A stretch of 62,813 bases of DNA, counting the filler, from Collodictyon triciliatum (lineage: Eukaryota), in NCBI GenBank assembly GCA_043381765.1. It is 8 parts of 8 records of this genome, joined end to end, with 100 filler letters (N's around TTAATTAATTAA, not from the genome) between each part and the next. Parts side by side here need not be neighbours in the genome. Positions count along the whole stretch, not along the records: positions 46,756 to 56,212 come from JBHJMP010000380.1; 7 more parts are not named here. One strand, written 5' to 3'. Position numbers and translations under genes: made by a program. This document shows, piece by piece, positions 7,083-59,300 of the stretch. Within the stretch, counting starts at the first letter, position 1. Every line of letters starts with the position of its first letter. The notes below the pieces were generated by a model. That model was not told the origin of the DNA and did no database searches. It saw only the letters and a list, made by a program, of their open reading frames with translations.

Positions 7083-7182
7083 NNNNNNNNNNNNNNNNNN
7101 NNNNNNNNNNNNNNNNNNNNNNNNNNTTAATTAATTAANNNNNNNNNNNNNNNNNNNNNNNNNNNNNNNNNNNNNNNNNNNN
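7083..7182. other. Artificial scaffold linker (N44-TTAATTAATTAA-N44)
   Basis: Palindromic six-frame stop cassette between N runs, identical at seven sites. Confidence 0.97.
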
Positions 7183-13913: not shown

Positions 13914-14102
13914 GTGGCAAAGAACGAGTCCGAAGCCAAACTACTGAGGGACGAAGATGCAAAGCGCGAGATAAGCAAGAAGCGGATGCTGGCTGCTCTT
14001 CACGCAATGACGGGCACAATCTCCCTTCCGCCCCACATTCGCGACATGCGCGGCATCCTCTCCGAGATTCAACCGCAGGAGGAGCTCAACACGTCTTTCT
14101 AA
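13914..14102 (+). CDS. Orphan terminal exon of an unknown gene (VAKNESEAKLL...QEELNTSF*), containing repeat copy 2 (14006-14112)
   Basis: Acceptor ttacag|GTG and an open GC-rich frame to TAA 14100-14102. No convincing upstream exons or start codon were found. Confidence 0.45.
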   Translation: MAKNESEAKLLRDEDAKREISKKRMLAALHAMTGTISLPPHIRDMRGILSEIQPQEELNTSF

Positions 14103-14248
14103 GACGCCTTGCCTTCCGTTGAAAAGCCAACGCCTCTTCTCTCCCTCGGTTTCCCAGATGACAAGCAAGCAATACAATTGAGAGCGTGCATCTCACGAGC
14201 AAAGCTGCTGCTTTTTGTAGCAGAGGAAGTAGGAGCGCACTTGATTTA

Positions 14249-16906
14249 TTATTTTATAGATTTCCACATGGTTTCAGCTGACGACTGCTGAATCGCAGAC
14301 GGAGCGTTTGACAGCTCCTTCCACGCATCCAGAGTTGAATCCAGGACACGGCGCGGGACGGTAATCTGCAAGCTGCGAATATGCGTCAGACACACAAGGA
14401 AGCGATTGAGGCTGTCGTGTGCTGGTGAGCGTTGTCCGCCTGACTCGCTTCTTGAGCCGCCGACCACTCGACCGGCAGAGCTGTCCCAACGTGCTATCTC
14501 TCTCAGAAAAACATGTTCCACCAAGGACGCGCGCAACTCCGCCTCTTTCTCGCGAGACAGCAGCGCCACCAACTGAACCGCAGTAGCCGGAGAGCAGTAC
14601 GGATACACCCACGAGAAAAGGGCGGTGATGCGCTGCGTCTGCTTCAAGGCGCCGAGGCACACATCCAGCTTGGGCGACTCAAACTCGGGCTTTGGCGTCG
14701 GGTCTGACAGATGCTCGTCGAGTCCGAGCTGCATGTGCAGATAATCTGATTGCTGATTGCTTCCTGATGGCAGGGAAGAGGGAGAGGCTCGTGCACGCCT
14801 ATGAGCGACAGCTCCAGATAGACCGGACCCCACCTTGTCTATCTGCACCAGAATGACACGCGCCAAAGTCTCTGCATCGGAGTGGCGGGCGAGGGTGCGC
14901 ATGACCATGGTTATGGTGTAGGAAGACAAGTTGGGGCTTTCTTTCAGGTATTTCAGAAGGAGCTCGCTGCTTCTGAGTCGAGCCATACAGCGAAGAAGAT
15001 AGTCGTATGTGTATGCGTCTGGCTGGATTTCCTTTGTGACCATCTCGCGTGTGAGTTGCAAGGCCTCCGAGAGTGCCTCTGTTGTGTTTTGCTTGCAGAG
15101 GACGTGAACCAGCATGTTGTAAGACGTGCGATTGGGTGGAGTTTTATTCGTGTACATCATGGAAAATACCCGTTTGGACTGCGTCACATCTGATGCCTGG
15201 ACCCAACTGTACAACAAAGCATTGAGGAAGAAATGGGACAGACGTACTCCTTGCGCCTGTGTCTTGACTAAAAGTTCGTTTGCAAGTTGTGGTTCTCCGC
15301 CTTTGCCGAAAGCTCGCGCTGCATAAGTCAAGCAGCGGTCGTTCGGAACAAGTCCATCAGCACGGATCTGCTGGAGGATGGAGCGGGCGCTTCGGACATC
15401 CCCATGAACTGTAGTGGCCTCTAAAGCCAAAGAATAGTGGAATAGCTGAACTGGCTCGTTGGACTCTCGGATATGCCTCAAGATGGCCAGGGATAGCTCC
15501 GAGTTTCCGGCACGAGCGCATGGCAGAAGAAAAGCAGAATATGTATGGGGGTTGAAAAAGAGGCCGCGCTGATGTATTTGACGCAGTGTGGTAAGTAATA
15601 ACGTTGGTCTTCTGCTCGCAATGCACATTTCGAGAATCATGTTATATACTGCGATGTCGGGCGTAATTCCGTCTTCTTGCATCTCATGCATTATACGTTG
15701 AACCCCATTCAAATCCCGCTCCATTGTGCATGCCCGTATTAATACCGTGTACGTAGCAAGTGATGGCTTTAACCCTTGTATCTCCATTTCTCTTAAAAAT
15801 GACAATGCTTGCCGAGTTTGACCTGATTGAATAAATGCATCAAGGATGGCCGTATATAAAATTACATGATGGACAGCGCCTTTGGGCCCTCGACTCGATT
15901 TATCACCCATCTCAGGGAACTCTGCATTGTCGAGTCTGTAAGGATCTGCAGATGAGAGCCACTCCAAGTCACTTTTACCTGCTGAGTCCTTTCTCTGGGA
16001 TATTCCCTCCTCTTTCTTTTGATTAGCCCCAACTTCTTCAGGGTCTCTTTTGCCGGTGTAGTTAAAGTCAAAGTCTGCGGGTGATGCAAAGCTGCGAATA
16101 AAATCTATTTGCGAATGATTTGATTTACTGAACCTCTCCCGGTCTATCTCGTTCTGTTTATTCGACGCAATATCATTTCTACCCCGGCTGACATCCTCCT
16201 TCCCTTCACTCTGCTCCTTATAACGCAGATTCACCTTGCTCTGTGCATGGCGGAAAAGCGACTCAGCGTGGTCAAGTCGACCGGCCTTCCCATAAGCCGA
16301 AATGAGGACAGCATATGAAGCTGGCAAAGGCTGGATGGAAAGTGCTGGGAGAGTATCAAACACTTTGGCTGCGTGCTGCACAAGACCTTCGGCGCAAAAC
16401 AATCGCACCAGACGATGAATTGCGATAGCAGATGTGTAGTTTGGAATGAGCTCGGTGGAAGGTGAAGCCGAGACGCCGTCCTCTTTGCTGTGTTTTGCTG
16501 CGGCTGTACTTGCCAAGGACTCGAGATACTCTAGAGCGCGGATTGGTTGCTGCTGTTCCATATGATTGCGAAGCATCTGCAAGGGCGTAAGCAGCGGACG
16601 AGAAGGCATCGGCTGCAGCTTGTGCAGAGGTGTTACAGAAGAAGCGTTGTTTGCATAGAGCCCGTGTGGCTTTTGAGAGGTGTCATTGAGTCGATAGCGC
16701 GGCTTCTGCACAATCGGCCGATCCCACTGCCTTTCGGTCGCCTCCTGCTTCGGCCTTTCTGTGGGCCGCCTCTTGTGGGGGACGACAAAGTCATCGACAT
16801 AGGACTCTGTGGAAAAGAGTCTGCCCAGTCTTGTCTCTGTCAGAAAGGCAGGCTTGCCTTGGCGTGTGCAGTGGCAGATGCCGATGGATCGGGCCAGAAG
16901 GAGCAT
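14249..16906 (-). CDS. Pentatricopeptide repeat (PPR) protein, probably mitochondrial, single exon, about 885 aa
   Basis: Tandem 35-aa motifs (YAVLISAYGKAGRLDHAESLF; YTAILDAFIQSGQTRQALSFLREMEIQGLKPS; YNMLVHVLCK..MVTKEIQPD). The N-terminus from ATG 16906 is Arg-rich and presequence-like. Confidence 0.9.
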   Translation of the reverse strand: MLLLARSIGICHCTRQGKPAFLTETRLGRLFSTESYVDDFVVPHKRRPTERPKQEATERQWDRPIVQKPRYRLNDTSQKPHGLYANNASSVTPLHKLQPMPSRPLLTPLQMLRNHMEQQQPIRALEYLESLASTAAAKHSKEDGVSASPSTELIPNYTSAIAIHRLVRLFCAEGLVQHAAKVFDTLPALSIQPLPASYAVLISAYGKAGRLDHAESLFRHAQSKVNLRYKEQSEGKEDVSRGRNDIASNKQNEIDRERFSKSNHSQIDFIRSFASPADFDFNYTGKRDPEEVGANQKKEEGISQRKDSAGKSDLEWLSSADPYRLDNAEFPEMGDKSSRGPKGAVHHVILYTAILDAFIQSGQTRQALSFLREMEIQGLKPSLATYTVLIRACTMERDLNGVQRIMHEMQEDGITPDIAVYNMILEMCIASRRPTLLLTTLRQIHQRGLFFNPHTYSAFLLPCARAGNSELSLAILRHIRESNEPVQLFHYSLALEATTVHGDVRSARSILQQIRADGLVPNDRCLTYAARAFGKGGEPQLANELLVKTQAQGVRLSHFFLNALLYSWVQASDVTQSKRVFSMMYTNKTPPNRTSYNMLVHVLCKQNTTEALSEALQLTREMVTKEIQPDAYTYDYLLRCMARLRSSELLLKYLKESPNLSSYTITMVMRTLARHSDAETLARVILVQIDKVGSGLSGAVAHRRARASPSSLPSGSNQQSDYLHMQLGLDEHLSDPTPKPEFESPKLDVCLGALKQTQRITALFSWVYPYCSPATAVQLVALLSREKEAELRASLVEHVFLREIARWDSSAGRVVGGSRSESGGQRSPAHDSLNRFLVCLTHIRSLQITVPRRVLDSTLDAWKELSNAPSAIQQSSAETMWKSIK

Positions 16907-17277
16907 TGCGGTGGCCTCTTTCAAAGAGTGTGGCCTGCTAGGCCAAGTGATCTGTGTTTCATAGAATGCTTGAGTGGAGGCATTGACTTTCTTTTTTGCA
17001 GTGCCCCGATCCGTTTCTTCGTCTTTATTTTTTTTATTTTATTTTATTGTGTTTTTTCATTAGTATTATTTGATTTGTTAATGTCAGGCACTGACAGAGT
17101 AAAGAGGGAGCTGTCAGGCTTTTATCTTAATCTTGTCTTCATAGAGTTGTGGCATTTTGTTAGTTTAGATCTACACATAGGGATAAAGTCAGGCAATGAG
17201 GACAAAGACTGATGGCGTATTCCGATAAGCCTTTCTGCATTTCCCAACATCTTTCTTTTTTGTTTGTTGCTCTGTTT

Positions 17278-20200
17278 CTATTGCTCAAAGGGCTGTATTT
17301 GGTTGATTTGGCTAAACCTTGGAAACATCTCTCTTACGTTGAAGGCAGGCGGTCGAGGAGAGTCTCCTTTTGAAAACATTTTTGTCCACATCGGCCGTAT
17401 GAATCCAAAAGAAATTGTAACCGCGAACCATAAGATGTTAAAGCCAATTAAAAAGCCCATGACCCATGATTGTGAGTCCAACAGAAAAGAAAGGAGAATA
17501 AGAAAATAGGAGAAGAATATGAGGTATAGACTTGACGCCTCCATCAAGTTTTCCATGTCGGATTTGTAGGGTCGATACTTTTCGTGAATCCAAATGCATG
17601 CCTACACAAAATTATAGATAAGCTCACATTAATGAATAACGAATTAATTCTTCCTTAAATATGCTTTCTCATACAACTAATCAAAAAGAATTAAAATTGA
17701 GGTCGGCTTTTTTTTTTTAAAAAAAAAAAAAGCAAGCACTCACTTGAATCACAATTATAAGAAGAAGAAAGAACACCGATGGTTGATTGTAAGGAATGAC
17801 GCTGATTACAAACGAAAATACCACTCTCCTTATTATTATCACCAGCTCCCAAAACTTCAGATTCTAAAGATTTGTTTGGGTTCAGGAATATTGTTATTTT
17901 GAGTTATTAATTATAAAGATATTTTCTTTCATACCTCTTTATAAGGAAGATAAAGAAATCCGAATCGTTCTCTGCTGTTCCGGCCAGATTCTTCTGTGAT
18001 ATGATTCAATTTCCACCAAATAAAAGCAGGGAGTCCAGCCAAGAAAAATATCAACATCAATACAGACGGAACTAGCATTCTCTTGAACTCGGCCGACACG
18101 GGATTACATTGCACCCACGGGGCATAATTCAGATACCATGCTTTGTCACCCTCGTCATATACTGTGCACCCAAAGACTCCAAATATCTCGCGAGCGATTG
18201 AATAGTACATTAAAAATAGTATTTGCAGCATTATGTATATCGCCTGTTCATTAAAAAAAAAACAAGTTATTTCTATTCAAATAGTAATCATAATCAGTTC
18301 AAACGACTTGAGGAAGAAACATATATTGCCCCAGAAGTATAAAATTACTATCATTCGATTCATTTCGAATGTGCAGAAAAAAAAAAGTCTAACACATGAA
18401 ACATATGAAATTATAGAACTTCTTGTTATTTGAACTTACTTTGTTTTTTAATTTTCCTCTTGCGATGTAAAATAAGCCCATTCCAATCACTAGTACGATG
18501 GGTATTCTGAGAAAGCTTACAATTAACGGATTCAGAGCATTTGTGGATTGAAGGATACAAGAAAGGCTCGGCATTTGGATAGACCCAACCGAATATGATA
18601 TATTTATGAACGAGTTCGCATTTTCATCTTGAATAAAACTGATAGGCAGAATGGAAAGTGTCTGGACGTGGAATAGGATGATTCGAAGCTTGGCTAAAAT
18701 AATATATAACGAAGGGTATTACTATCTGATATGTATTACACACATGTAAACTTGCCCAAATTGATAATAGAATGGTTATGTCTTTAATAAATTTTAACCT
18801 GATGAAGACGAATCCCAATAATAAAGATACGCTAGGAAAAATCCGAATCCAATCAACACGAGGATTACCATCGATATCCTAGCCACACTGTCGCATTTCA
18901 CACAAGACCTTCCCTGGCTCCCATAGCCAACCTCACATTTTGAACATGCATGCCCTTCGTATCCATCCTTGCAAAGTGTAGTGAATGTAGGTATATTCTT
19001 CCAAGTCGAATCTTTAACAGGAATTATCGTGCTGCATGACTCTGGTCGGGGGCATGGTAGTAGTTTTTGTACGCTTTTGACATCAGGGGAAGCATGGCAT
19101 TTTTTGAGTGTTATACCGTCAGTGCAATCGCATTCCCTTGGACACTGAATGCATTTGTCTCCGAAGCCAAAATAGTTAGGAAGGCACTTGCATAAGGCAT
19201 AGTCATAGTATTTTGCATCAAGTTCTACATCTGTTTCCACTAATCCTGTATTTGATATAACCATGGGACACATGTACAACTTAGAATTATCCTCAAGTTG
19301 ATATGAGTGAGTGTAATTCATGAATAAGGGTAGCAAGCTAGAACTCATATGACTCAGACTGGTATTTTTCAAGCCTATGTATTCTAGCTTGGAAAATAGG
19401 TCAAATGACTCTGGTATGCTTCCGAGGATAGGATTTTCAGATACATCTAACTTTGTCCATTCAAGGAGATTGTTTGAATCACCCAAGCCAACAATTCGGT
19501 TACTTTTGAGACTCAGTGTCTTCATATTCCGGGCTAAGGTAAAAATCCGAGTATCAACTCGACCTTGAAATCTATTCCCATCAAGGATAAGGTTTTCATA
19601 CGTATAATTGTAATCAGCGATGTTGTGAGAAAGAAATGGAACGATAAAGTCTCCAACATCCCCAGTGAATTTGTTCCATGACAAATCTATCGTCACCAAA
19701 TTAGGGAGATTCCAAAACAACAGTGGCATTGTCCCTTCGAGTTGGTTGTGGGAAAGAATCAAGTTTTTTAATTGATAGAGGCTCTGCACAAACGCAGGAA
19801 CTTTCCCGACCAGATTATTCCTCGAAAAGTCGACATGCTGGACGTTTGGTGCATCTAGAGTGGCTGAAATAGGCCCAAAGAGCTTGTTTTCTCCAATGTC
19901 TAGACCTTTCAACCGTGGAAGCCTCCACGAAGGGAGTGACCCGTTCAATTGATTGCGATAAAGAGCTAATTTTTCAAGGAGTCCACTTGTCTTAAATGTA
20001 GGAATGTCCCCAGATAATTGATTATCGTAGAGAATTAATGAAATCACAGATGTCATGCTGGAAAACGTTGGGATGGTGCCTTCATATTTTATTTTATTTT
20101 TTTTAAAAAAAAGAATGAGTTCACAAATCATCTGGTGTGACTTGAGTAATCAAAAAGTAATTTCGTAAGAATTATATTGCGCACCTGTCAACTTATTTCT

Positions 20201-21265: not shown

Positions 21266-21365
21266 NNNNNNNNNNNNNNNNNNNNNNNNNNNNNNNNNNN
21301 NNNNNNNNNTTAATTAATTAANNNNNNNNNNNNNNNNNNNNNNNNNNNNNNNNNNNNNNNNNNNN
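21266..21365. other. Artificial scaffold linker
   Basis: N44-TTAATTAATTAA-N44. Confidence 0.97.
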
Positions 21366-27210: not shown

Positions 27211-27310
27211 NNNNNNNNNNNNNNNNNNNNNNNNNNNNNNNNNNNNNNNNNNNNTTAATTAATTAANNNNNNNNNNNNNNNNNNNNNNNNNNNNNNNNNN
27301 NNNNNNNNNN
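27211..27310. other. Artificial scaffold linker
   Basis: N44-TTAATTAATTAA-N44. Confidence 0.97.
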
Positions 27311-32201: not shown

Positions 32202-32301
32202 NNNNNNNNNNNNNNNNNNNNNNNNNNNNNNNNNNNNNNNNNNNNTTAATTAATTAANNNNNNNNNNNNNNNNNNNNNNNNNNNNNNNNNNNNNNNNNNN
32301 N
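32202..32301. other. Artificial scaffold linker
   Basis: N44-TTAATTAATTAA-N44. Confidence 0.97.
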
Positions 32302-32459: not shown

Positions 32460-33570
32460 ACGAGGTGGAAAGCCTCACTGCTGCCCGAAAAGCTGCGCTC
32501 TCCGGGTCGGAGCCGTCAGATGCCATCCGCGTAAGCATACGACATCAGGAATCGCTCACATCAAACATGATTGTGCACTGTCCCCAGTCTTTGTCTTTTG
32601 ATGCGACACAAACGGTGGCATAGGTGGTCAATGCAGTGCTGACCCAAATCGACCAGCTTCGATCTCGTGACAACGTCCTCATTCTGACGACATCAAACAT
32701 CACCGGGGCGATCGGTAAGCAAACAGACTCGCGTTGATATGTTTTGCTGGGAGATTCATGATCATCATCATCGTCATCATCATCATCATCATCATCATCA
32801 TCGTCGTCCCGCCTTGATGTGGTTTCTCATATTTCAGATGTGGCCTTTGTGGACCGCGCCGATGTGAAGCAGTTTATCGGCCCACCATCTTTGCATGCCC
32901 GCTACGAAATTCTCCGCTCCTGTGCAAACGAACTTATGCGAGTCTCCATCATCCACCCACACGTACACTCAAATCCAAATCCAAACCAAAAAAAAAAAAA
33001 AAAAAAACCCCGCACGAGGGAAACCATACCTTGTTCGGAATGAATCCGGCGAGATTGGAGGATGCAAACCACGAAGAAATCTCGCCCCCTTTTTTTATTC
33101 CCACAATCTTTCTTGGACGAATACTAGGAGCACATTCTCGAGTACAAATCTGTGGATCTGATGAAGCACGCGCAGAACGAGTCCACAAAGAACAGCAGGG
33201 CGCTGTACGAAACCGCCGTCGTCTGCGAGGTTTGCCAGGAAAAAAAAAAAGGTTGCGCATAGCACTGGGCACTCATACTTTATATGGAATGCAATCTGAT
33301 CTATTTCTATATCTGGATTCCACAGAATCTGAGCGGAAGAGCCCTGCGCAAGCTGGCGTTCATGGCACACGCTTTCTTCTCAAAGGTTTCTGTGTGCTGA
33401 CAAAATAGCTGTGCCAAAAGCGACCTCATCCAACTTCATTCCAAGTCTAAGAATGATTATTGGCAACATACCAGGGACAAGATACGGTACCTCTGCACAC
33501 GTTCCTGGACAGCCTCGCCCGCGCAGCCTCTCGCGAAGTTGCCGTCCGCTCGTTGCTGGCCCATGCATGA
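32460..33570 (+). CDS. TRIP13: PCH2/TRIP13 AAA+ ATPase, 3' half
   Basis: Six exons encode [69 protein letters not shown] and a TGA at 33568-33570. These motifs are diagnostic of PCH2. Confidence 0.93.
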
Positions 33571-34256: not shown

Positions 34257-38922
<4,666 letters not shown>

Positions 38923-40298: not shown

Positions 40299-40398
40299 NN
40301 NNNNNNNNNNNNNNNNNNNNNNNNNNNNNNNNNNNNNNNNNNTTAATTAATTAANNNNNNNNNNNNNNNNNNNNNNNNNNNNNNNNNNNNNNNNNNNN
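40299..40398. other. Artificial scaffold linker
   Basis: N44-TTAATTAATTAA-N44. Confidence 0.97.
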
Positions 40399-40806: not shown

Positions 40807-46354
<5,548 letters not shown>

Positions 46355-46621
46355 CTATCATATTCAATAAAAATGCATGAATACACCTTTTACGTAAATC
46401 AGCAGTGGAAAAAAAAACAAATGATTTCAGATTCGTTATTCTTCATGGTTTACACCCTGGGTATATTCATTTTTTTTGTTTTGTTTTGTTTTTGTTTTTT
46501 TGTTTTTTTGTTTTTTGTTTTTTATTTTTTTGTTTTTTATTTTTTTGTTTTTTATTTTTTTGTTTTTTATGTTTTTTATGTTTTTTTTGTTTTTTATGTT
46601 TTTTTTTTTTTTTTTGTTTTT

Positions 46622-46655
<34 letters not shown>

Positions 46656-46755
46656 NNNNNNNNNNNNNNNNNNNNNNNNNNNNNNNNNNNNNNNNNNNNT
46701 TAATTAATTAANNNNNNNNNNNNNNNNNNNNNNNNNNNNNNNNNNNNNNNNNNNN
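46656..46755. other. Artificial scaffold linker
   Basis: N44-TTAATTAATTAA-N44. Confidence 0.97.

Positions 46756-46822
<67 letters not shown>
46756..46822. repeat. (GT)n microsatellite in a squalene epoxidase intron at the scaffold start
   Basis: Directly visible. Confidence 0.95.
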
Positions 46823-46825
<3 letters not shown>

Positions 46826-46827
46826 AC

Positions 46828-49363
46828 CGTCAGAGACTCCAAAGACTCCGTAGAGGCCGGCGGCGAGGATGTTGATGGTGGACGAGAGGGACTTCCGCTC
46901 CGCTTTGAAGGTGTCGAATGCAAGTCGCATGCTGTGGTCATTGAGTAAGTCAAGCCCGTTGAGCACCTTGGATAGCTGGTAGCAGTCGGAGAAGGCAACG
47001 GTCATTCCACCTGGGTTTGTGTCGGTATTTCGTCAGTGTCTGCAGGACATTGTCGTGGGTGGCAAATGGCGAGTAATCCGGGCGGGTGTGTCCTGATGCG
47101 ACAGGGAGTGCCGCATGCAACAACAATGACCAGGAGCGATTAGGGGTGGACTTATTTTACACAAACCTCCGGTGAGTGGGTGGCGGCAGTTGAAGGAATC
47201 GCCAAGGAGGAGGACGCCAGGGGTGAAGACGCTGTCCTATTTGAGTGGATGGCGATTAGGCGGAGCAGCTATGGCCAGACATCATTAAGGGGGAAGGGCG
47301 TGGAGTGGCACACTCTGAGTGAGATGCTGATCAGAGCTTAGATGGCTTGCGAGGCAGACCTGTGGGGGCATGACCGTGGTTTTTCTGGAGCGCATTCTAC
47401 CGGCAGCCATCTCCGCCAGCATGGCTTTCTGTGATTATGCTTAAGGGCTTAGTAGGTGTTGTTGACTGGGTATACTGAAGTTATGTGAGAGCTTTGTGTA
47501 AGACAAGGCAGAGATTGAGGAGTGGGCAACAATAAAAACTGGCCGAGATAGGAGCTCTAATAGTTTTTTTTTTTCGGACCATCAGGAAGAGAGATATCCT
47601 GCAAACCTGCATATCCTCCGGGATGAGGGGCATGACTTTCTCCTTAATGTAAGCCTCGATGCTCCCTGCCGGGACGCTATTTCGAATGTCGACAAAAAGG
47701 CGGGCCTCTGTGGAACTGATGGGGTAGGCGAGAACGATGCATTCTTGAGTCAGAAGGACGTGGCCGTACTTTCTGCAGGACTCGTCACCAGGCAGGCACG
47801 AGACTGGTACGATGAAGCCGATAAACGCAGACTCGCTGGTTGTTTGGGCCTTGGGTGCGACCTAATAAGATGAGAGGAGACTTTTAGAAACCTGTGGTAG
47901 TGGAGAGAGTAGAGTGCTTGCGAGTTCTGTATAGACGAGGGGGCGTGTTGTTCGCTGGGCGAAACGGTGTGAGTATGACTAACTCACGTAGCGGCGAAGG
48001 TTGGAGTAAGACCCGTCACACACGATGGTGAGGTCAGCGTTGAATATCTATGACAAAGGTTGTGTTACAGGGGTAAGTTGAAATGATTAGCACAGAGAAA
48101 AAAAAGCTGTGAGTCTGAGACTAGACATTCACTTACAGCGTCTTCTTCGGTTCCTTGTCTGCGGTACTTCAGACCGGTAACTCTACCTTTCTCCTCTTGA
48201 ATTCCTTTCACAGTGGCCTCCACAATCGTGACACTGAAATAGAGTGTGCGTACGTAGTAATGAGACATTGACAGACAGACTCGTGTGAGCTTCAATAACG
48301 ATTCGTGTAAAAAAAAATCCAGATATTGTCGTTACTTGGGCTCAGCTGCGAGTGCTTTGCGGAGATTCATGACAAAACGGCCGTGGTGGAATCCTCGACC
48401 GAAAGTGACGGCGTCTTCATCGTCAGGATATTCAATAGTTGTCACTTGGCCTCCGTGGTGGACTTGGTAACCGCGTGTAAGACTGGAGTCGATCCCTTCC
48501 AAGCAATCTGCATATTTGACATGGCTTAATTTTTCTCTGGCTAGTGCCTGTCATTGTGGGGCTTACACGCAGTTTCGACCGAGACACTTTTGTGTCTCTT
48601 GCGATTTTTTATAGGGGTAGCCTTTCCAGGTTTTGATACGGTCCAGACTAACTCGCAACAAAGAAGAAATAAACCAGAAGGAAAATAAGTGAGGGAGACG
48701 GTTCCAACCTTGCATCCCAAGAAGACGGAGGTACTTGACACCTCCGGGCTGAAGAAGCTCGCCGATGATCCTGTCGGGCATGGACATGTCGCGCTCAAAG
48801 ACAGTGACTTTCCTTCCTTGCTTGGCCAGGGCAACAGCTTCATGACAGGAAGAGGTTAGGAGACAAGAGAAAGGCCTGCATCTTCAAACACAAGGACAAG
48901 GGCGCTTGGGTGAGGCGCAACACGAAAGGCGGACGGGGGAGGAATGGCTGACTCACCGACTGCAGAACCGGCAATTCCTGCGCCAACAACAGCAACTGTC
49001 TGGGGAAGGTTCTTCTTCGGAGTCACGGGCTTCACGTCCAGAAGCATACCCTAGGAAGGAAACAGAGTCGAAGGCAGAGCACCAAAAAGGTCAGGCTTTC
49101 GTCCTGGTCACGAGTAGATGAAAATGTGGAAAACTGTGGAAGGTAGCCGAGCCGTCTACTTCACAAGGGGGAAAAAAGGAGCCATGGGAAAGTAGGCGAC
49201 TTAGACAGACTTTTCCAGTGAGGAGTCGCCAGGCCTGGACAAACTGGTCTGCGGTCTGGGCTCGCCACTTGGAGTCGAAGAGGCGCACCAGCAGGACGTG
49301 GATGAGTGTGCAGACTGCCGTGAAGGCGAGAATGCCGACAAGGGTGAAAGGCAGCGGCTGCAT
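46828..49363 (-). CDS. SQLE: Squalene epoxidase (squalene monooxygenase, ERG1/SQLE family), 3' truncated by the scaffold end
   Basis: Ten exons splice in frame: N-terminal TM anchor, VVGAGIAG, FERDMSMPDRIIGELLQPGG, GRGFHHGRF, LTIVCDGSYSNLR, GHVLL..LAYPIS, LLGDSFNCRHPLTGGGMTVA and STINILAAGLY. Confidence 0.95.
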
Positions 49364-50529
49364 GTCGTTGGAGCAGGACTGGTCTGTTGATTGTGCAGTT
49401 TGGTAGTGCGTTAGAGGGATAAAGGGGTGAGTTTACGTATAGAGTCTGGTCTTTCGCTTCCCAGAAGGTGAGATATGATTGAACAGCGCCTGTAGGAGTT
49501 TGTCCCTTTCACCCTTGCAATGTCTGCGTTGTGCTTTCTGGCTTCTGCTTGCAGACATAACAACTAATCATACACTATAAGAAAGTATGCCTGGCCAGCC
49601 CAAACTTTAATATGGCCGGGCCATAGCGTCTGCCTGTCGTCATTTCTCGTGTCGGAACGAAACAAAGCCTCACGCTCACCCACACACAACACATCCAGAT
49701 GCACACAATCCGCCCGCACAGGGTTGTTTCTGGACGTTTCCTTTTGGCCCTTTTTCTTTTCTTTCTTGCCCCCGACAGCTGCGCGCTTGCAATCCACGAT
49801 CCGTTTGTCCTTTGTGCTTGGGTGGCGTTGGGGGGTTGTGTGTTCCGTTTTCATCATGCCATATGAGAATTCCCTTGCAATAATTGAATATTTTCCATTT
49901 TCGTCTTTATTCTATTAAAAAACGCATTTAATTTGTGTTTGTCTGCATCGGTTCTTTTTTTTCTTTCTGTTTCACCCAGGCCACAAACGCAGACACACAA
50001 CAGACACAAACCCCGGCCACACAGGAATTCCTGCGTTCGGCTGATTCGTGGGATTGTGGGATTTTCCACATACCGGGAACGCCTCTGTTTGACCATCTGA
50101 ATATGGCGATTCCCTTAAAATTGGGTTTGTAAATGTTCCCGGAACCATATGATTCCGACTGATAAGGAATGTGTACGCGGCTTTAAGTTCAGCGCTTGTG
50201 GGTTGCTCTTTCGCGGCGGCTGATTGATCACTGGGCCACGCCTATGTCATTTGAGCCACACCTGCCTAAGCTCCCCTGTCTGGGTGCCCAAGGCTCCCAA
50301 GTGCGTCTGCCTGCCAAGCGCAATAAACACGCAAAGCAAGCAGCAACGCTGGTCTGTAGTTTGAGGCTCGGTCCAATTCTCCAGGCCCAGAATCAGCTGC
50401 TTGCAAATGCAGTCTGCCTTCGGCCTGGCCGCCTAGAAAAAAAACAAACAAGCAAAGCTTTTGGGAAGAGGAGGGAATAATAATAATAATAAAATTGGAC
50501 TGGGAAGTCTCTATAGATCGAGCCAGAAG
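49364..50529. promoter_or_regulatory. Putative shared/bidirectional promoter region between the SQE and OSC start codons
   Basis: 1166 gap-free bp between divergent ATGs (49363 and 50530) with no credible gene inside. The function is inferred. Confidence 0.55.
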
Positions 50530-50855
50530 ATGTGGCGTTTGCACTCAGACATAGATGGACAGCAAGTGTGGCGCTACCACCCGGTTGCTGAGGATGAGAC
50601 TGAGGCCCAAGCCAGCGTCCGCCGCCAGATCGAAGCCTTCCAACTAGACACGGCCAAGCAACCGGTTTGCCTTGCAGACTCTTTGCATCTTCGACTTAAA
50701 TACAAAGCTGTTGATATCATGCCTTCGCTCTTTCTATACAGTCGTTGCCCTGTGCCTCTGTCGACCTGTTATCCTGTCTCTTTTTCTTTTTTCTTCTTTT
50801 TTCTTCTTTTTTCTTCTTTTTTCTTCTTTTTTCTTCTTTTTTCTTCTTTTTTCTT

Positions 50856-50889
<34 letters not shown>

Positions 50890-53800
50890 TTCTTTTCTTT
50901 TCTTTTTCTTTTCTTTTCTTTTCTTTTCTTTTCTTTTCTTTTCTTTTCTTTTCTTTTCTTTTCTTTTCTTTTCTTTTCTTTTCTTTCCTCCGAACTCTTG
51001 GGCCTTGCTTTACCTTCACCCTCTTAGAACGCCTCGGACGTGCCCTACAGACTCTTTCAAATGCATAAGAACGGACACGAAAGCGTCTTGGGGACCCCCG
51101 CGTCGGATTCCCCTGCAGTAAGTTCCACCCACCTCACTCTCACTCCTCCTCTTCATACCTTCTTCAACTTCTTGTGCAGTTGTCTTTTTGTCAACTCTGC
51201 TTCTGTTGACTTTCTTGTTTTTCTTTTTCTTTTGTGTCTTTCTTTTGTGTTTGCCTTCTGCCCCTTCTAAACACCAGCGAAGCGACGATCCGGAGGTTTA
51301 TCTGGACGCCCTGCGATCGGCCATCGGATATGTCGGGACGGTCCAGTCGGACGGAGGACACTGGCCCAGTGACTATGCAGGCCCCATGTTCCTGATGCCT
51401 GGTTTGCTTTTGGTATATCACAAGGATTCGACATACGTCTCCTGCATATACTTGCTGATATTGCACTATGCAGGTCTAGTCATTGCGACATATATCACTG
51501 AGATCCCGCTCTCTGAGCCCCATAAGCAAGCCATGATCAAATATCTTACAATCCACCAGAATGCAGATGGCGGCTGGGGAATGTGAGTGGGACCGTTTAT
51601 TGGATCTTTTTCTTATCCCAGCATGTGTTTTTCATCAATGCGAGTCAATGTCCTGTATCTTTTCTGTTTCTTTTTTTCATTTTCTTATTTTCTCTTTCTT
51701 ATTTTCTCTTTCTTATTTTCTCTTTCTTATTTTCTCTTTCTTATTTTCTCTTTCTTATTTTCTTTCATTTCCTTACTGTTTGAAAAAAAGTAAAAGTGTA
51801 GAGCTGTACTACGCTGTAATTAATCATAACCATGCGGGCCTAATATTGGGTTTTATTTTGAGCATGGTACTATGTGATAATATTAGCGTCGTTACCACTC
51901 TGTGATTTCACCATGCTCACTCGACCTCGGATTTAGTCACATCGAAGCTCCCTCCTCAATGTTTGGAACTGCTCTCACGTACGTCACATTAAGAATTCTT
52001 GGTCTTGATGTAGATGACGGCCGAATTATCAAGGCCCGTGCCTTCATCCAAGCAAACGGTACTAAATCCTTTGATTTCATTAGGATATCAATTAATAGAA
52101 TTTAAATAACATTTCTTTTCATAACTTTAGCAATTAATAAAAGAAAAAATATAACTTTAAACAAAAAAAAAAAGGCGGCGCTGTTGGAATCCCTTCATGG
52201 GGAAAATTTTGGTTGGCTGTCCTCAACATCTATTCATGGGAAGGCTGTAATCCACTGTCACCAGAACCCTGGTTGGTTTTCGTTAAATCCCTTCAATTTT
52301 CCAGCTGACCCACATAAGTTAGCACATCTCACATATAGCTACACAGTAAACTATATGCTCTTCAATAGCTGCGAGTATTCCCGCATTGTATCTCGTGTCT
52401 ATTCGATATCAGGTTGGTTTCATCAAGAATGACTTGTAATGTAATCTAGGATTCTCCCTGAATGGTTTCCTGGATTCCACCCATCTCGGATCTGGTGCCA
52501 TGCGCGCATGGTCTACCTACCAATGTCCTATTTGTATGGCATACGCGCTAAGTGCAAAGAAACCCCGCTTGTCTTGTCCTTGAGAAAGGTTACACATGGT
52601 CAATTATTTCCTGCCTAACTATGTAATGGTTCTCCTCTTTGTCAATATTTCTCTCTCATCATATTGTTTTCCACCCCTCAAAGTAATAAATTACTACAGG
52701 AAATATACACGTCTGATTACGATAAAATCTCATGGTTTTCGAAGAGGAACCACGTCTGCCCCTTAGATGTTTACCGCCCCCACAGTTTGTTCTTGAAAAC
52801 CGCTCACCGTGAGTTTCATAATTACTCAGTTACATTGACAATTTAAATAAAATGCTTGGCGTATTCTCAAGATCTCGTGTTCCTTATAATTTTACCATGT
52901 CACTTTCAGTTGCATTGGGTGCCTTTGAGTATGTCACTCCTTCCTTCTTGCGAGAAAAGGCTTTGAAGGAAGTTATGTTTCAGATCCACGCCGAGGACGA
53001 AAACACAAACTACATCGATATCGGACCCGTTCGTCTTGCTCTTACGCTAATCATATCACATCAAGAAATAATGGATCCCAGCGTAACCAATATGTAACAG
53101 TGACTTCCTGTCCAGGTTAACAAGATCATCAACATGCTCTGTGTTTGGTTTGAGAACCCAAAGTCCGAACAGTTTACAAAGCACGTTTCCCGCATTTATG
53201 ACTACCTGTGGGTTGCCGAGGATGGGATGAAAATGCAGGTTTGCAATGTCCCATATAGTCAGCCACATTCATAATGCCTAAACCCTGTTTTCACAACAAG
53301 CCTATCAACCAATCTAAACCTCATTTAAATTTAGGGCTACAATGGTTCACAACTATGGGACGTCGCATGGGTCATGCAAGCAATCATCGAATCTGGTATT
53401 TCTCTGTAAAGTAAATTATTCCTCCATCGTTCTTGTCTAAAACTCTTCCCTAGGACTTACTGAAGAGTTCCCAGAGATCATGTCCAAAGCGTATGACTAC
53501 GTCGAATACGCCCAAGTAAGCCACAATCGCTTATCCATCTTAAGGAGCAAATGTGAACCTGTCATTTTTTAAATCAGTGGGATGGTCATCCCCTATCGCC
53601 AAAGTAGTAAAAATTAAATCTTGTGTACAATAAGGTTCGTGAAGATGTGGATATGAGGGAAAGATGCTACCGACACGTTTCCAAGGTAAACCTAGGAATT
53701 TTGGGACTGGTCATAGGCGAACCACTCTCCTACATAAATGAGCAAAATAAAGCATGCATTCTCTTGTGCTTTTTTACTTTTATTTAACTTGACGTTTTGT

Positions 53801-54616
53801 ATCTGATTTGCTCTCCAATTAGGGTGGATGGCCCTTCAGCACCCGTGACCACGGATGGCCCATCTCTGATTGCACAGCCGAAGCACTGAAAGTTGTTCTC
53901 CAAATGCGGCCATTTACGTAATCTTGAGATTTCCCAAGAAAAAAAAACACTTTGACTTTCATCGAAAACAAACTCTTTTGGCTGCCCTCCAACTGCACGA
54001 AGAAGAAAAGGTAGGGAAAATGACTGGAAAAAATCTTCTTCTTTTTACCTAGCTTCCTCCCCAAGCACATCTCTCCTGATCGGCTCTATGACGCTGTAAA
54101 CGTAATTCTTACCCTGCAAAACATCGATGGAGGTATATCCCACAATCTTCAGTCTAAGCTTCTTCACAACAGAGATAGTAGATTGTTAAGTCATTTTTCT
54201 TTTCTTCTTTTACCAAGGATGGGCCACTTATGAGAACACCAGAGGGTCATCCTTTCTGGAGATGCTGAATCCTTCCGAGTGCTTTGGTTTTTGTTTTTCT
54301 CAGAAAAATCACCTTTCATATACCCATATTATTTCCTTAGACTTAATTTATGTGTTGGGGACTGAGTTTGTTGGTAAAGTTATGCTCTTTTGTTTTGTTT
54401 TTCTCTCCGCTTTTTTTCGAGGATACTGATCCAGCGATTCCTCTTCTTGGTTTGACCTAGTTTAATTTCATTCTTACATCGCCAGGCAATATCATGATTG
54501 ATTATTCCTATGTGGAGTGTTCTGCGGCGTGTATGACGGCTCTGAAGAATTTCCGTCATTATTTCCCCAACCACCGCAAGACGGATATCAAGTTTGTAGA
54601 ATCAAACCTCTCTTTT

Positions 54617-54704
<88 letters not shown>

Positions 54705-55948
54705 TCNNNNNNNNNNNNNNNNNNNNNNNNNNNNNNNNNNNNNNNNNNNNNNNNNNNNNNNNNNNNNNNNNNNNNNNNNNNNNNNNNNNNNNNNNNNNNN
54801 NNNNNNTTTTCTCTCTCTTTTTCTCTCTCTTTTTCTCTCTCTTTTTCTCTCTCTTTTTCTCTCTCTTTTTCTCTCTTTCACACACACACACACACACACA
54901 CACCATGTTGACCAAATAAAACTTTGTCTCGAATTTTTCTAGGGAATCCATTACCAGAGGAGCCAATTTTATCAAGAGTATTCAAAGACCCGACGGCAGC
55001 TGGTATGATATCATGCACTCCACTGAACGCGTTGCGATGCCCTTTCTCTTTTCATGAAAACTCACATCTTGTCTTAAGGTATGGAAGCTGGGCAGTTTGC
55101 TTCACTTACGGAACATGGTTTGGTGTTGAAGGTCTTCTTGCCGCAGGAGAATCTCCGTTTGTTTTATTTTACATCATGTCACATTGCAGTGTTTTTCCTG
55201 TTTTTGTGGACGAATAACACAAAACATCACATTCTCGCTCGTGTCATACTCAGTCGCTGGTTCAGTAAGTCCTTGTGATGAACAGTTTCTATAATCAAAT
55301 TTAGTGAATGTGGAGAAATTCAACGTGCCTGTGGATTTCTGCTGACCCGCCAGAACGCAGATGGTGGGTGGGGAGAAAGTTACAAGGTTTTTATAATATA
55401 CCTAAAACACTTCAACATGTTTGTTTTATTTGTGGATTGGGATGTATTTTGTTTCATTACATGGTGATTGGATTACTATGTATCTTCTCATATTCCCAGG
55501 CAAGCGAACAGAAGGTATGGCATGGAACTGAATCCCAAGTTGTCCACACCTCATGGGCATTGATGACACTTTTAGCAGCGAAATGTAGAAAGCACGAAGT
55601 CCTCAGCAAAGCCGCCCATGTAAGGGGCTTTATTATTTTATTTTTTAGAGTAATCACTCGAATATGACTCACAAACTCATTTTCTCTTTTTTCCTGCATC
55701 AATCCTCATTACTGTACCTGATATCTTTTACTGAATTGTACCATCTCTCTTGGTTTCCGCTATCCTGTGGAACGTAGTTCATCAAATCGAGGCAGCTGGA
55801 TGATGGCGACTTCCCACAAGACCGTATCTGCGGAATCTTTAACGGAAACTGCACCATTTCCTACACAAACTATCGCAACTCATTCCCCATTTGGGCTCTC
55901 GGCCGCTACCGCAACTACCTTCTGAGGCGTAGCCAGTCTGAATATTGA
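50530..55948 (+). CDS. CAS1: Oxidosqualene cyclase, cycloartenol synthase type, complete, about 22 exons
   Basis: Motifs [116 protein letters not shown] and [14 protein letters not shown] at 55946-55948. Confidence 0.96.
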
Positions 55949-56212
55949 AACACCTGGTGGCGGCAAAGCGCCTCTGGTGTTTACACTCTAAACAGATCGA
56001 CTTGATGCGCTCGACTGAACTTTTCTATACACCCCACCGGATATACATCTAAAACGATAAATGGAGCATAACAAAACAAGAAACACAAATCCTAAATACC
56101 AGGCAAGGCCTTTCCTACAACAGCCACAATGTGTTTTTGTAAACCCAAGCACAAAGGGAAATGAGAATTATGATAAAAGAATAGAGAAGCTTTGTAGATA
56201 CACAATGGGAGG

Positions 56213-56312
56213 NNNNNNNNNNNNNNNNNNNNNNNNNNNNNNNNNNNNNNNNNNNNTTAATTAATTAANNNNNNNNNNNNNNNNNNNNNNNNNNNNNNNN
56301 NNNNNNNNNNNN
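56213..56312. other. Artificial scaffold linker
   Basis: N44-TTAATTAATTAA-N44. Confidence 0.97.
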
Positions 56313-56324
56313 AATTCTTTACAG

Positions 56325-59300
56325 AGTTTATGAATCGTGAAAAAGGAATCGTTGAGCATGAGAATGCAGATACAATTTTAGATCAAATCTTGCCGGTGAA
56401 TTCTGCACTCTCCTTTTTTTTCTCCTATTTTTAACCAAAAAAATAAATAAGACTACATCATTTATATTTCTATTTAATATACCTCGATATATGAAATGCA
56501 TTTAGTTAGATACAGTGACTATTGACTGAAGTTAGAACGATTGAAAAAGGTTTATTTTACTTTTTTTTTTTGGTGTCTAGAATGAGATATCAACAAAACT
56601 ACGGGATGACCCAGACAAAACGATTGCAACCTCGTTTGAGCATGTCACCGTAATATCATTTCATAATAGAGCTAAAAAAACATTTCATAATCGAGCTGCT
56701 TTCCCACCGTCCTGCACAGAAATTGAAAGGAAGAATTAAAAATAATAGAGCTGCTTCATTAATTTTCTAAGAGATTTCAAAATAAATGGGCTTTTATTAA
56801 AATAAATGTAAATTCATAAATCAGGTTCTTTTTGCAGAAGTGTGTGACTACAACAGGATGGCGAGCGAGCTGCCTCCATCCGAGTTGTTTTTTGTTTTAA
56901 ATAAAATATTTACAAAGTTCGATGTGCTAACAGAATTCTATGATGTCTTCAAAATTGAAACGGTAAAATTTTAATGTTTCATATTCAATTAATTAGATGT
57001 TTAGTCACTCCAAACACAAGTATACTATTTCTTTTCTTGAAGGAGATTCAAACTTGTCCATGCTCAGAGCAGGATTTATATTCTAAGCAATCAATATCCC
57101 ACTATTTTCCTAAGGTTGGTGGGACTTACATGGCTGCCACTGGATTGAAGGGAAAGTCTGACCCATTAGCAGAGAGCAAAATACTTGACTTTGCGATGGA
57201 TATTCTGCAAGTAGCTCAAGTATACTGGGACCATCAGGTTTTTTTTTTTTTTGCCTGGACCATTAAAAAAATATACAAGTTGGTTATAAATTCTATGGAA
57301 GATATCTCACGAGAATCTACACAAAATGAAACTTTAAAGGGAAAGCCAATTAACATTCGGGTGGGCCTGAATACTGGGCCTGTTACTGCTGGAGTCATTG
57401 GAACCAAGCTATTCAATTTTCGGCTTTTCGGGGATGCAGTGAATTTAGCCTCCAGGTTCATATGCGTTTATATTTTTAAAAGATTGTTCATCGCAGATTT
57501 CTTTTATATATACAACATATTTTTGCTGACTTTATCTATGGGCTTGCTCAAAAGGATGCAGTCATCAGCACCCAGAAACAAGATTCAAGTATCTTTGGAA
57601 ACAAGGTTGAGATACATGAGACCTCGTGTCGATCAGTCATAGACCTACATTAGAACTGTTCTACTGTAGTTCATTTCTCTACTATCCAAAACTAACATCG
57701 TATTATACCTCCTTACTTTCCAAACAGGCAATATTTTGCTCCTTACTTCAATTTTCGAGACCGTGGATTGGTGAAAGTCAAAGGAAAAGGAGAATTGTAT
57801 ACTTACTATGTTGCAGGCAGAATTCAGGTATTAACGATATATATATCGATATTTACAGATAACTACTATTATCGATTCTTTGAATCGAATAAAGGAAAAA
57901 AAAAACTACTATTATCGATTAAAATCATAACCATGGAGCACTATGTTTTCCTACATTTCTACGTTTATTATTTTTAAAATTATTGGGCTACTCTGCTACT
58001 TTTCATGGATAAAATATTCCTTCTCCATCCTGGGATAGACATCGATAGTGAATCACAATATAAAAAGAAGCTCCACTGGGTCTTTTATTTCTCGTGGTAG
58101 ATGTAATGCCTTGTCATTTTATAACTATTCTAAAAACTTTTCCCTTACCACATGAAGCATTGGAAAAATTACTATTATATTGACTAATGCATACAATTTT
58201 TTTTTTATTTAATCGTGCTCTACCCTCCAGCTGATTCTCAAAGTAGTCGAGGGAGTATTGTGCGAGCCATAAACGACGCAGCATCCAGCACTCTCGCTCA
58301 AGTTACATCACAAATTCAGGAGGCCATGAAGAAGGAATTTAAGGACATCAGTAATCGCAATGATGGGACTGAGGTTGTCGGTGAAAATATTGAAGATGAG
58401 ACGTTAAATGACAAGTATGAAAAGAGAAGGTATATTTTATTTCAATAAGCAGATAAGCACCGCAAGACCCGACCATAATTGTATTTTCTTACACCATGTT
58501 TTTATTCACTCATACACTCTGCACCAAATAATAGTCACGAGTCCCACAAAAAATTCAAAGAGTTGATACGCCCAGTGTCCCTGATATTTAAAGATAATGA
58601 GCTCGAATACTTGTTTATGTCAAAAACGTTTGGAATTCGAGCAGCATATCATTCGATGAGGTTTTTTTTTTTTTTTTTAATAAAATACTAATTGAAGTGT
58701 TTTAATTCTTGATATCGCATTCTTAAGAACCAAGTTCAAAAATCAACTTTTTTTTTTCCTGTTCAAAAGAATTTCACTGGTTATACTCGCCGGGTTGTTC
58801 ACCCTTTTTGCAATATTGCAAACTCTCAGTGCGGACGATTTCTTGAAACATAAGGTTTTTTTCATTGGCCAAATCAGTGGTTTATTCAATAGAAGTAGTG
58901 AGATTAGCATTTAAGGCCAGCAATGTTTATTACAAATTCAAATGGAGAGTAATATAAATCTAGATTTCTACTGGGCTATATTCTACCACAATAGTCGTTT
59001 CATTGATTGTTTATATGCTGCTATACCTCGAATTTCATGGGAAAATATGTCTTATAAGCGTGCTTGTGATTGGTAATGATGATTCAATCTCAATAACCTC
59101 TTTAAAATTCTTTTGGCTGACTGCTTGATATCGATACATCAACTTCTTGCCAATATTATTCCCTTCATCCGATGGCGATTAACGATGAATATCATATTTG
59201 ATAAAAAAAATATTAATAGCTGGGTGCCTTCAGTCAGTGCATTTTCTTTTTTCAATCTACCTAGCATCACCCCAGAAGGTTTTTTTCTTTGGAAACCTCG

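Follow-up and report, generated by a model that had tools for sequence, protein, structure and literature searches.

A head-to-head squalene epoxidase and cycloartenol synthase-type gene pair in the draft genome of Collodictyon triciliatum, a candidate co-regulated unit of core sterol synthesis

The draft genome of the eukaryote Collodictyon triciliatum (GenBank assembly GCA_043381765.1) contains, on a single scaffold piece, two sterol genes that point away from each other across a short common interval. In the stretch of 62,813 nucleotides analysed here, which we call the window, the gene for squalene epoxidase (SQE) lies on the minus strand with its ATG at 49363, and that for oxidosqualene cyclase (OSC) on the plus strand with its ATG at 50530; the two stand head to head across 1,166 bp. 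SQE converts squalene to 2,3-oxidosqualene and OSC converts 2,3-oxidosqualene to the first sterol, that is, the two enzymes act at consecutive steps. We lean towards the view that this is a genuine nuclear, eukaryote-type host pair that is divergently transcribed, shares a promoter region and is presumably co-regulated. If so, both genes would be transcribed from the 1,166-bp interval by way of either a bidirectional promoter or a common region of open chromatin, such that the levels of the enzymes for the two steps would change in concert and the epoxide intermediate would be kept from accumulating.

The make-up of the window determines which of its neighbours can be taken as neighbours in the genome. 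The underlying draft eukaryotic assembly has an overall GC content of 38% in this window and is interrupted by 25 runs of N in 62.8 kb, which amount to 18 gaps when each of seven linker joins is counted once. The gaps are of two types. The first comprises eleven runs, of which ten have 100 N each and the eleventh has 367 N; at ten of the eleven, a like microsatellite or homopolymer stands on both flanks (the exception being 4111-4210), and they are ordinary within-scaffold gaps. The second type consists of seven composite N44-TTAATTAATTAA-N44 blocks (7083-7182, 21266-21365, 27211-27310, 32202-32301, 40299-40398, 46656-46755 and 56213-56312), the flanks of which are unrelated to each other. Spacers of the TTAATTAATTAA type carry stop codons in six frames and serve to concatenate scaffolds or contigs into a pseudogenome, the order of which is sometimes arbitrary, according to those parts of PMC3019230 and bioRxiv 2023.02.08.527609 that deal with them. 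Because the flanks of all seven joins are unrelated, the window must be regarded as eight separate pieces, and adjacency across a TTAATTAATTAA block therefore does not amount to genomic neighbourhood for any finding in it. The SQE-OSC pair falls wholly within one of these pieces (46756..56212; 9,457 bp, including 100 N), which is bounded on the left by the join at 46656..46755 (N44, TTAATTAATTAA and N44, with poly-T on one flank and (GT)n on the other) and on the right by the N44-TTAATTAATTAA-N44 join at 56213..56312. An earlier note on this DNA had placed the two genes on one scaffold; this holds for the 9,457-bp piece, but the linkers deprive the rest of the window of the status of a proven neighbourhood, and SQE runs off the end of the piece.

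It could be argued that the pair itself was created by a chimeric contig joining two loci that are not neighbours, all the more so as the assembly is highly fragmented, with so many N runs and seven artificial joins in so short a stretch. Such a join, however, would have to fall within the N-free and non-repetitive 1.17 kb between the two genes, whereas the real breaks of the window, two excepted, occur in microsatellites or homopolymers, none of which is present there. We thus regard an assembly artefact as very improbable.

Judged by its spliced translation, the minus-strand gene is a squalene epoxidase, the epoxidation itself being predicted. Its model (46828..49363) was built with P0001 as a guide, the closest protein found, which is a complete open reading frame (ORF) of 533 aa from a eukaryotic transcriptome set, and it draws further on Pfam PF08491 and PDB 6c6n. 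It consists of ten exons (49363-49211, 49050-48957, 48837-48709, 48507-48336, 48233-48137, 48047-47988, 47861-47607, 47428-47360, 47236-47167 and 47010-46829, or 46828) separated by nine GT-AG introns of 89-201 bp, and encodes 427 aa of about 533. The model shares its starting methionine (49363) with P0001 and aligns with residues 1-425 of that protein without a gap at 75% identity (blastp); the first ~51 residues form a hydrophobic N-terminal stretch common to both (61% identical). Three of the exon ORFs match PF08491 at 46, 24.5 and 44.4 bits (cut-off 20.1), spanning profile positions 24-205 of 276, and one exon matches human squalene monooxygenase (PDB 6c6n). Exon 2 encodes GAGIAG (48967..48984, minus strand, as read from the spliced translation), a dinucleotide-binding motif of the GxGxxG form that we take to bind FAD and whose glycines G74, G76 and G79 (P0001 numbering) are invariant in our 13-sequence alignment A1. 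The translation also carries the GD(A/S)FN(M/C)RHPLTGGGMTV block (GDSFNCRHPLTGGGMTV), and the corresponding positions are likewise invariant in alignment A1.

The gene is truncated at its 3' end. The tenth exon is followed by the start of intron 10 (46756..46827), in which a GGTACG donor gives way to an (AC)n/(GT)n microsatellite that continues to the scaffold end; since the scaffold ends inside this intron, the C-terminus is missing, and P0001 residues 428-533, corresponding to ~106 C-terminal residues of SQE, find no match anywhere in the window. The part that is present contains neither a frameshift nor a stop. The truncation is a property of the assembly and no evidence of a pseudogene.

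The plus-strand gene (50530..55948) is complete, its model of 22 exons and 733 aa being based on PDB 1w6k, P0020 and bacterial OSCs. Here P0020 is an alga-like protein that is a 'cycloartenol synthase' by its source's name. The exons lie at 50530-50664, 51028-51117, 51278-51401, 51474-51582, 51937-52058, 52175-52271, 52450-52588 and 52700-52808 (exons 1-8), 52910-53028, 53116-53238, 53335-53395, 53454-53515, 53635-53685, 53823-53917 and 54053-54132 (exons 9-15), and 54218-54286, 54486-54591, 54943-55002, 55079-55156, 55305-55386, 55500-55619 and 55778-55948 (exons 16-22). The coding sequence of 2,202 nt opens with MWRL at 50530 and ends at its sole stop codon (55946-55948), and all 21 introns (58-363 bp) are of the GT-AG type. 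Exons 1-3, which were picked from 115 candidate splice combinations by their fit to eight OSC N-termini, are less certain than the rest of the model; the joint that was selected brings back the conserved F-x-[FL]-D...P-N-x-S-D-V-x-Y-R block. The 648-aa core encoded by exons 3-22 aligns lengthwise with P0020, with short gaps and at 52% identity, and residues 2-724 of the full model align with bacterial OSCs at 49-51% identity over 721-740 positions. The protein also matches human lanosterol synthase (PDB 1w6k), and an ESM Atlas search returned generic plant cyclase clusters. Taken alone as a single exon rather than as part of the spliced protein, the last exon scores 23.6 bits against PF13243, below the cut-off of 26.1. 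The only N run within the piece, a 100-N gap with (TTTC)n-type microsatellites as its flanks (54707..54806), is situated within intron 17 (54592-54942), and no coding sequence has therefore been lost; exons 17 and 18 abut in the P0020 alignment with zero residues missing.

Residues that distinguish the two kinds of cyclase could be read from the alignment to 1w6k. A tyrosine codon (53338..53340) aligns with T381 of the human enzyme and represents the cycloartenol-synthase state, and the H-G-W-P-I-S-D stretch (53850..53870) places histidine at human position 449, isoleucine at 453 and aspartate at D455. The last of these belongs to a segment in which ...WPISDCTAE of the window is aligned with ...WIVSDCTAE (451-459) of the human enzyme, the aspartate of DCTAE being at the D455 position, which we take to be the catalytic acid. 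The part of PMC4919349 that treats these positions assigns Y381, H449 and I453 (human numbering) to cycloartenol synthases, and T381, C or Q449 and V453 to lanosterol synthases. The signature thus supports the prediction that the window OSC is a cycloartenol synthase rather than a lanosterol synthase, with its product predicted accordingly from the residues.

The interval between the two start codons (49364..50529) is free of N and represents a candidate bidirectional promoter together with both 5' untranslated regions (UTRs). Its GC content is 48%, as against 38% in the introns and 52% in the exons of SQE and OSC, and it contains no microsatellite, whereas several introns do and 23 of the 25 N-run gaps of the window sit in simple repeats; a composition of this kind fits UTRs and regulatory DNA. 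None of the 13 ORFs of 76-116 aa that lie in the interval or overlap it (ten are wholly inside) has a Pfam match, and neither Rfam families at gathering score nor tRNA genes were detected in the whole window (zero in each scan). Nothing in these scans points to a join or a hidden gene. The description given in the earlier note, of SQE and OSC diverging at ATG 49363 and ATG 50530 from a gap-free 1,166 bp, is borne out by the spliced models and the N-free interval; the same can be said of its view of both as intron-rich, host-style genes, with 9 and 21 GT-AG introns, and of its cycloartenol synthase call, given Y, H and I at human positions 381, 449 and 453.

If physical coupling of these two steps is of any use, it might be encountered in other organisms that make sterols, and bacteria offer such a case. 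A bacterial and archaeal genome collection was scanned with a 13-sequence eukaryotic SQE alignment, whereby 230 stretches matched, 96 were confirmed and the best 80 were kept. The scan patterns were the GxGxxG motif and the second conserved block described above, which means that the scan reaches only bacteria whose SQE keeps both eukaryote-like motifs; SQE of the Methylococcus or Gemmata type was therefore probably not sampled. The 80 loci come mostly from Bacteroidota, with Methylothermaceae, one Myxococcales and a few others, and their SQE is 33-41% identical to P0001; the matches start at P0001 residue 64 or later in 68 of the 80 (mostly at ~70) and between residues 26 and 61 in the others. 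An OSC was found within the examined flanks in 47 of the 80 loci, and in 43 of these 47 the two genes are divergent. Sixteen of the divergent pairs are directly adjacent, with no ORF of at least 150 aa between them and 119-450 bp between the ORFs, while one gene intervenes in 21, two in five and three in one; in the remaining four loci the genes are co-directional and more than 5 kb apart. The directly adjacent pairs are those of the Eudoraea type and of Methylothermaceae, and among these 16 one locus (L008) has a 107-aa ORF between the genes, and in another (L080) the SQE ORF is interrupted by a stop. The loci are not independent, as the 80 collapse into 25 single-linkage groups at 62% identity, with direct divergent pairs in four. 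Where a single gene intervenes, it was squalene synthase (PF00494), co-directional with SQE, in all three loci scanned out of the 21, and two loci with more intervening genes also hold a squalene synthase beside SQE. Taken together with single-chain fusions of the two enzymes, of which seven are described below, the 43 divergent loci among 47 indicate that selection for coupling the SQE and OSC steps exists elsewhere.

Some of these loci deserve mention in their own right. In five scanned loci from Bacteroidota (L025, L010, L064, L021 and L040) the order is OSC in one direction, and squalene synthase directly followed by SQE in the other, with further genes present in L021 and L040. A Fluviicola-type locus (L044), the one co-directional locus scanned, has SQE and OSC in the same direction, and the genes between them include those for HMG-CoA reductase, mevalonate diphosphate decarboxylase, a GHMP kinase and a polyprenyl synthase. 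The SQE ORF of L080 (8885-11491) spans ~868 aa, internal stop codon included; a pseudogene, a sequencing error, or a squalene synthase and an SQE taken for a single ORF may account for it.

The proximity of the two genes in bacteria, asserted in the earlier note, is thus supported by our scan and also by section 10 of PMC7306690, according to which sqmo and osc are close in most bacterial genomes, the SQMO and OSC trees agree with each other globally, and one group of bacterial OSCs falls inside the eukaryotes; eukaryotic gene order is not addressed in that section. The window and the sampled bacteria have in common not only the linkage but also the head-to-head orientation, a coincidence of one in four if orientation is random. 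It is conceivable that the pair preserves part of an ancestral layout, the genes for the first two oxygen-dependent steps of sterol synthesis having moved between bacteria and early eukaryotes as one head-to-head unit; either the lineage of Collodictyon would still keep this arrangement, or it would be close to the partner in such a transfer. This would be consistent with the 43 divergent bacterial loci (16 direct, and 27 with one to three genes between, usually squalene synthase), as well as with the congruent trees, the gene proximity and the bacterial OSC group within eukaryotes set out in the section cited above. The same loci, however, stem from few clades, direct pairs being confined to four of the 25 clusters, the scan was bound to the two eukaryote-like SQE motifs, and the matching orientation could be that one-in-four coincidence. 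The phylogenies of the two genes bear on this question as well.

For SQE, the matches that follow P0001 are 37-47% identical and, among the best 120 of 4,118, come mostly from plants, plus a jakobid and a Mortierella fungus, with no bacteria in these 120. Bacterial SQE entered the trees as one sequence per 62%-identity group (31 from 79 sequences of at least 400 aa), of which 16 were hand-picked for a careful tree of 34 rows (LG+C20+F+G4). In this tree a 100/100 branch sets 14 bacteria apart from 20 rows that include the window; these 20 comprise all 11 labelled eukaryotes, six unnamed sequences, the window itself and two rows from bacterial bins (Myxococcales and a Verrucomicrobiaceae metagenome-assembled genome, MAG). 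An identical split, with 29 bacteria, was obtained in the quick tree. The window SQE has P0001 as its sister (100/100), and the two share a long stem, whose placement among eukaryotes is not resolved by the tree. An approximately unbiased (AU) test of the topology in which window SQE and P0001 stand next to the 14 bacteria did not reject it (p 0.52), the groups having been named post hoc from the trees.

The two bacterial-bin rows on the eukaryotic side of this split are L003, on a 12,114-bp contig of the Verrucomicrobiaceae MAG, and L031, from the Myxococcales MAG. The L003 match is in two pieces, and its SQE groups with Mortierella in the quick tree and with a plant-side group in the careful one; neither locus has an OSC within the flanks examined. 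Their SQE could reflect eukaryotic contamination of the bin or a transfer.

The OSC core of the window is 50-55% identical to cyclases of Bacteroidota and Methylothermaceae, that is, as similar to bacterial OSCs (up to 55%) as it is to P0020 (52%), and the closest of 150 unlabelled representatives, in an exhaustive search, is 50.5% identical to the window OSC. Two trees were built, one of 67 rows (22 bacterial group representatives, 43 of the 150 representatives with near-full coverage, P0020 and the window; LG+G4) and one of 35 rows under a mixture model. The 43 and 21 unlabelled rows of these trees are given without taxon identity and P0020 bears the sole eukaryote-type name, which limits every statement on OSC made here. 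Both trees place the labelled bacteria, those of the Eudoraea type apart, in a clade of their own without the window (100 in the Shimodaira-Hasegawa-like approximate likelihood ratio test, SH-aLRT), and the window OSC groups with P0020 and P0164 at an SH-aLRT of 96 (LG+G4) or 87 (mixture model). As with SQE, a position of the window OSC next to 11 bacteria was not rejected by the AU test (p 0.33; groups again named post hoc from the trees). In a separate case, a 7,386-bp contig labelled Polaromonas sp. (L017) has its SQE and its OSC among Bacteroidota in the respective trees, where the SQE groups with Chitinophagales and the OSC is adjacent to a row from that order; this points to an error in binning or labelling, or to a transfer.

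In the best trees neither gene is nested inside the bacterial clade, and the pair has 30 introns in all (9 in SQE and 21 in OSC), every one of them GT-AG, in place of the intronless structure of bacterial genes. On these sequences SQE and OSC behave as ordinary eukaryotic genes, and a recent bacterial import, one of the origins raised in the earlier note, is not supported: SQE falls across a 100/100 split from the bacteria, OSC falls outside the labelled bacterial clade, and 30 introns would be hard to reconcile with a recent transfer. A special ancient relation of the window genes to the bacterial clade is, from the same trees, neither supported nor excluded. The two AU results (p 0.52 and p 0.33) and the similarity of the OSC core to bacterial cyclases would allow for a unit shared between bacteria and early eukaryotes. 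The best trees nevertheless keep the window genes off the bacteria, non-rejection of groups named after the trees were seen is not support, and the long stem of the window and P0001 invites long-branch attraction. All in all, we consider it unlikely that the pair is an inherited or transferred bacterial-type unit.

A simpler account is that SQE and OSC are real neighbours that came together by accident, in an arrangement without regulatory or selective meaning that would not be found in relatives. This account overlaps with several points that weigh against the divergent, co-regulated host pair that we favour. There is a single known instance, which was selected post hoc, and one adjacency that emerges from a scan can be accidental; head-to-head is one of four possible orientations. 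Co-regulation, as well as conservation in relatives, is pure inference. The interval has no shared motif above chance: its repeats are short words in two or three copies, with exact 10-11-mers occurring twice where ~0.2-0.7 pairs would be expected by our arithmetic, and as their number is at chance level they were rejected as shared motifs. That the interval is free of genes rests on Pfam and Rfam only, and an unannotated transcript may be present. Nor is linkage universal among the bacteria, since an OSC is absent from the available flanks of 33 of the 80 loci, and in at least 12 of these the flanks extend for the full 10 kb in either direction. As to numbers, if a genome has N genes, ~20 of them for sterols, our arithmetic gives ~40/N as the share of genomes in which the genes of some two consecutive steps are adjacent, a rate at which a scan of hundreds to thousands of genomes should bring up such cases. 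The prior for this specific pair is, on the other hand, ~2/N, the same two steps have been repeatedly linked or fused in bacteria, and the interval is short and differs in composition from the surrounding non-coding DNA. The claim of the earlier note that chance adjacency is unlikely holds for one pre-specified pair but is weaker after many windows and many pathway pairs have been scanned. We regard a neutral, accidental adjacency as doubtful, yet as the most serious of the alternatives discussed here.

To our knowledge, SQE and OSC are unlinked in yeast, human and Arabidopsis. The searched literature (titles and abstracts, with subscription journals outside its coverage) contains no report of linkage, synteny, adjacency or a bidirectional promoter of SQE and OSC in a eukaryote, and the available text of PMC10794256 mentions neither squalene nor sterol. 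As no such report was found, nothing points to a pattern conserved among eukaryotes, which is what an accidental adjacency would predict. Linked sqmo-osc loci and divergent pathway pairs are thus already known, whereas a eukaryotic SQE-OSC pair has, as far as our searches reached, not been reported.

What the divergent host pair is worth depends on synteny across relatives. Whether sterol synthesis passed from bacteria to eukaryotes or in the opposite direction is still debated on the basis of gene trees alone, and up to now gene order has been of help for bacteria only (PMC7306690, section 10). Should the linkage prove to be conserved in relatives, a eukaryote with the bacteria-like SQE-OSC orientation would add a physical character to the debate on origins. 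Should even the ancestral arrangement, unlikely as we consider it, turn out to be true, the lineage of Collodictyon would be the first eukaryote known to keep the unit and would provide a physical link between the eukaryotic pathway and the bacterial loci. Whatever its origin, a divergent core-sterol unit would be a compact natural system in which to study coordinated control of a step with a toxic intermediate. If, on the contrary, the pair is confined to one genome and the two genes are not co-expressed, it is only a curiosity.

The other pieces of the window, which are no proven neighbours of the pair, hold further genes. An uninterrupted 929-aa ORF with strong pentatricopeptide-repeat matches (14252-17038, minus strand) is intronless, unlike the intron-rich sterol genes, and sits in the GC-richest part of the window (52% over 14001-16000). 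Gene fragments include a leucine-rich-repeat protein (18797-20149, minus strand), a TRIP13-like AAA+ lid (32762-33040, plus strand), malic enzyme exons (37166-37844, plus strand) and an adenylate/guanylate cyclase catalytic domain (56959-57639, plus strand), and a Gln-rich ORF lies at 45693-46442 (minus strand). A Pfam scan of the ORFs revealed no sterol genes among the gene fragments on these other pieces.

Several known systems invite comparison with the SQE-OSC pair of the window, the tightest of them being proteins in which the two enzymes form a single chain. Seven such fusions (P0223, P0233, P0256, P0268, P0279, P0280 and P0291) were encountered among the 18 long representatives scanned, out of 150. 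They are 1,092-1,212 aa long and mutually 42-51% identical, with FAD_binding_3 and SE domains at the N-terminus and cyclase domains at the C-terminus; their SQE part is 24-35% and their OSC part 31-37% identical to the best matches in the comparison set, which are mostly labelled as bacteria. The seven are rich in Ala, Arg and Gly and are devoid of the eukaryotic N-terminal extension. No paper describing natural SQE-OSC fusions was found among the matches listed in our literature search. Two further long representatives, P0205 (1,022 aa), in which a squalene synthase domain is joined to a full OSC, and P0215 (1,430 aa), which has cyclase domains and a C-terminal fatty-acid-hydroxylase domain, may be real fusions or merged models of neighbouring sterol genes. 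The SQE-OSC fusions resemble the window pair in that the same two steps are coupled, here as tightly as possible; they differ in that there is one polypeptide from one co-directional gene, while the window has two divergent genes.

The bacterial sqmo-osc loci are alike in linking the same consecutive enzymes, mostly in the same divergent orientation. They are, however, intronless and, where the genes are adjacent, only 119-450 bp apart, as compared to 1,166 bp and 30 introns in the window; 21 of them have one gene in between, co-directional with SQE, where none has been recognised in the window; and most of the bacterial SQE matches start only near P0001 residue 70.

Among eukaryotes, the yeast GAL1-GAL10 and Aspergillus niiA-niaD genes are divergent metabolic pairs with demonstrated shared regulatory sites and co-induction. 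Like the window pair, they place genes of one pathway head to head with a short shared control region, but they belong to conditional nutrient pathways, whereas the window pair belongs to core sterol synthesis and is known from its genes alone. The thalianol, avenacin and helvolic acid clusters, in turn, are plant and fungal triterpene clusters built around an OSC, and they share with the window the placement of an OSC physically beside another enzyme of its route. Those clusters make specialised metabolites and combine a diverged OSC with P450s and transferases; in the window only two genes are visible because the scaffold ends, the OSC bears the cycloartenol-synthase signature of primary metabolism, and its partner is SQE, the enzyme immediately upstream.

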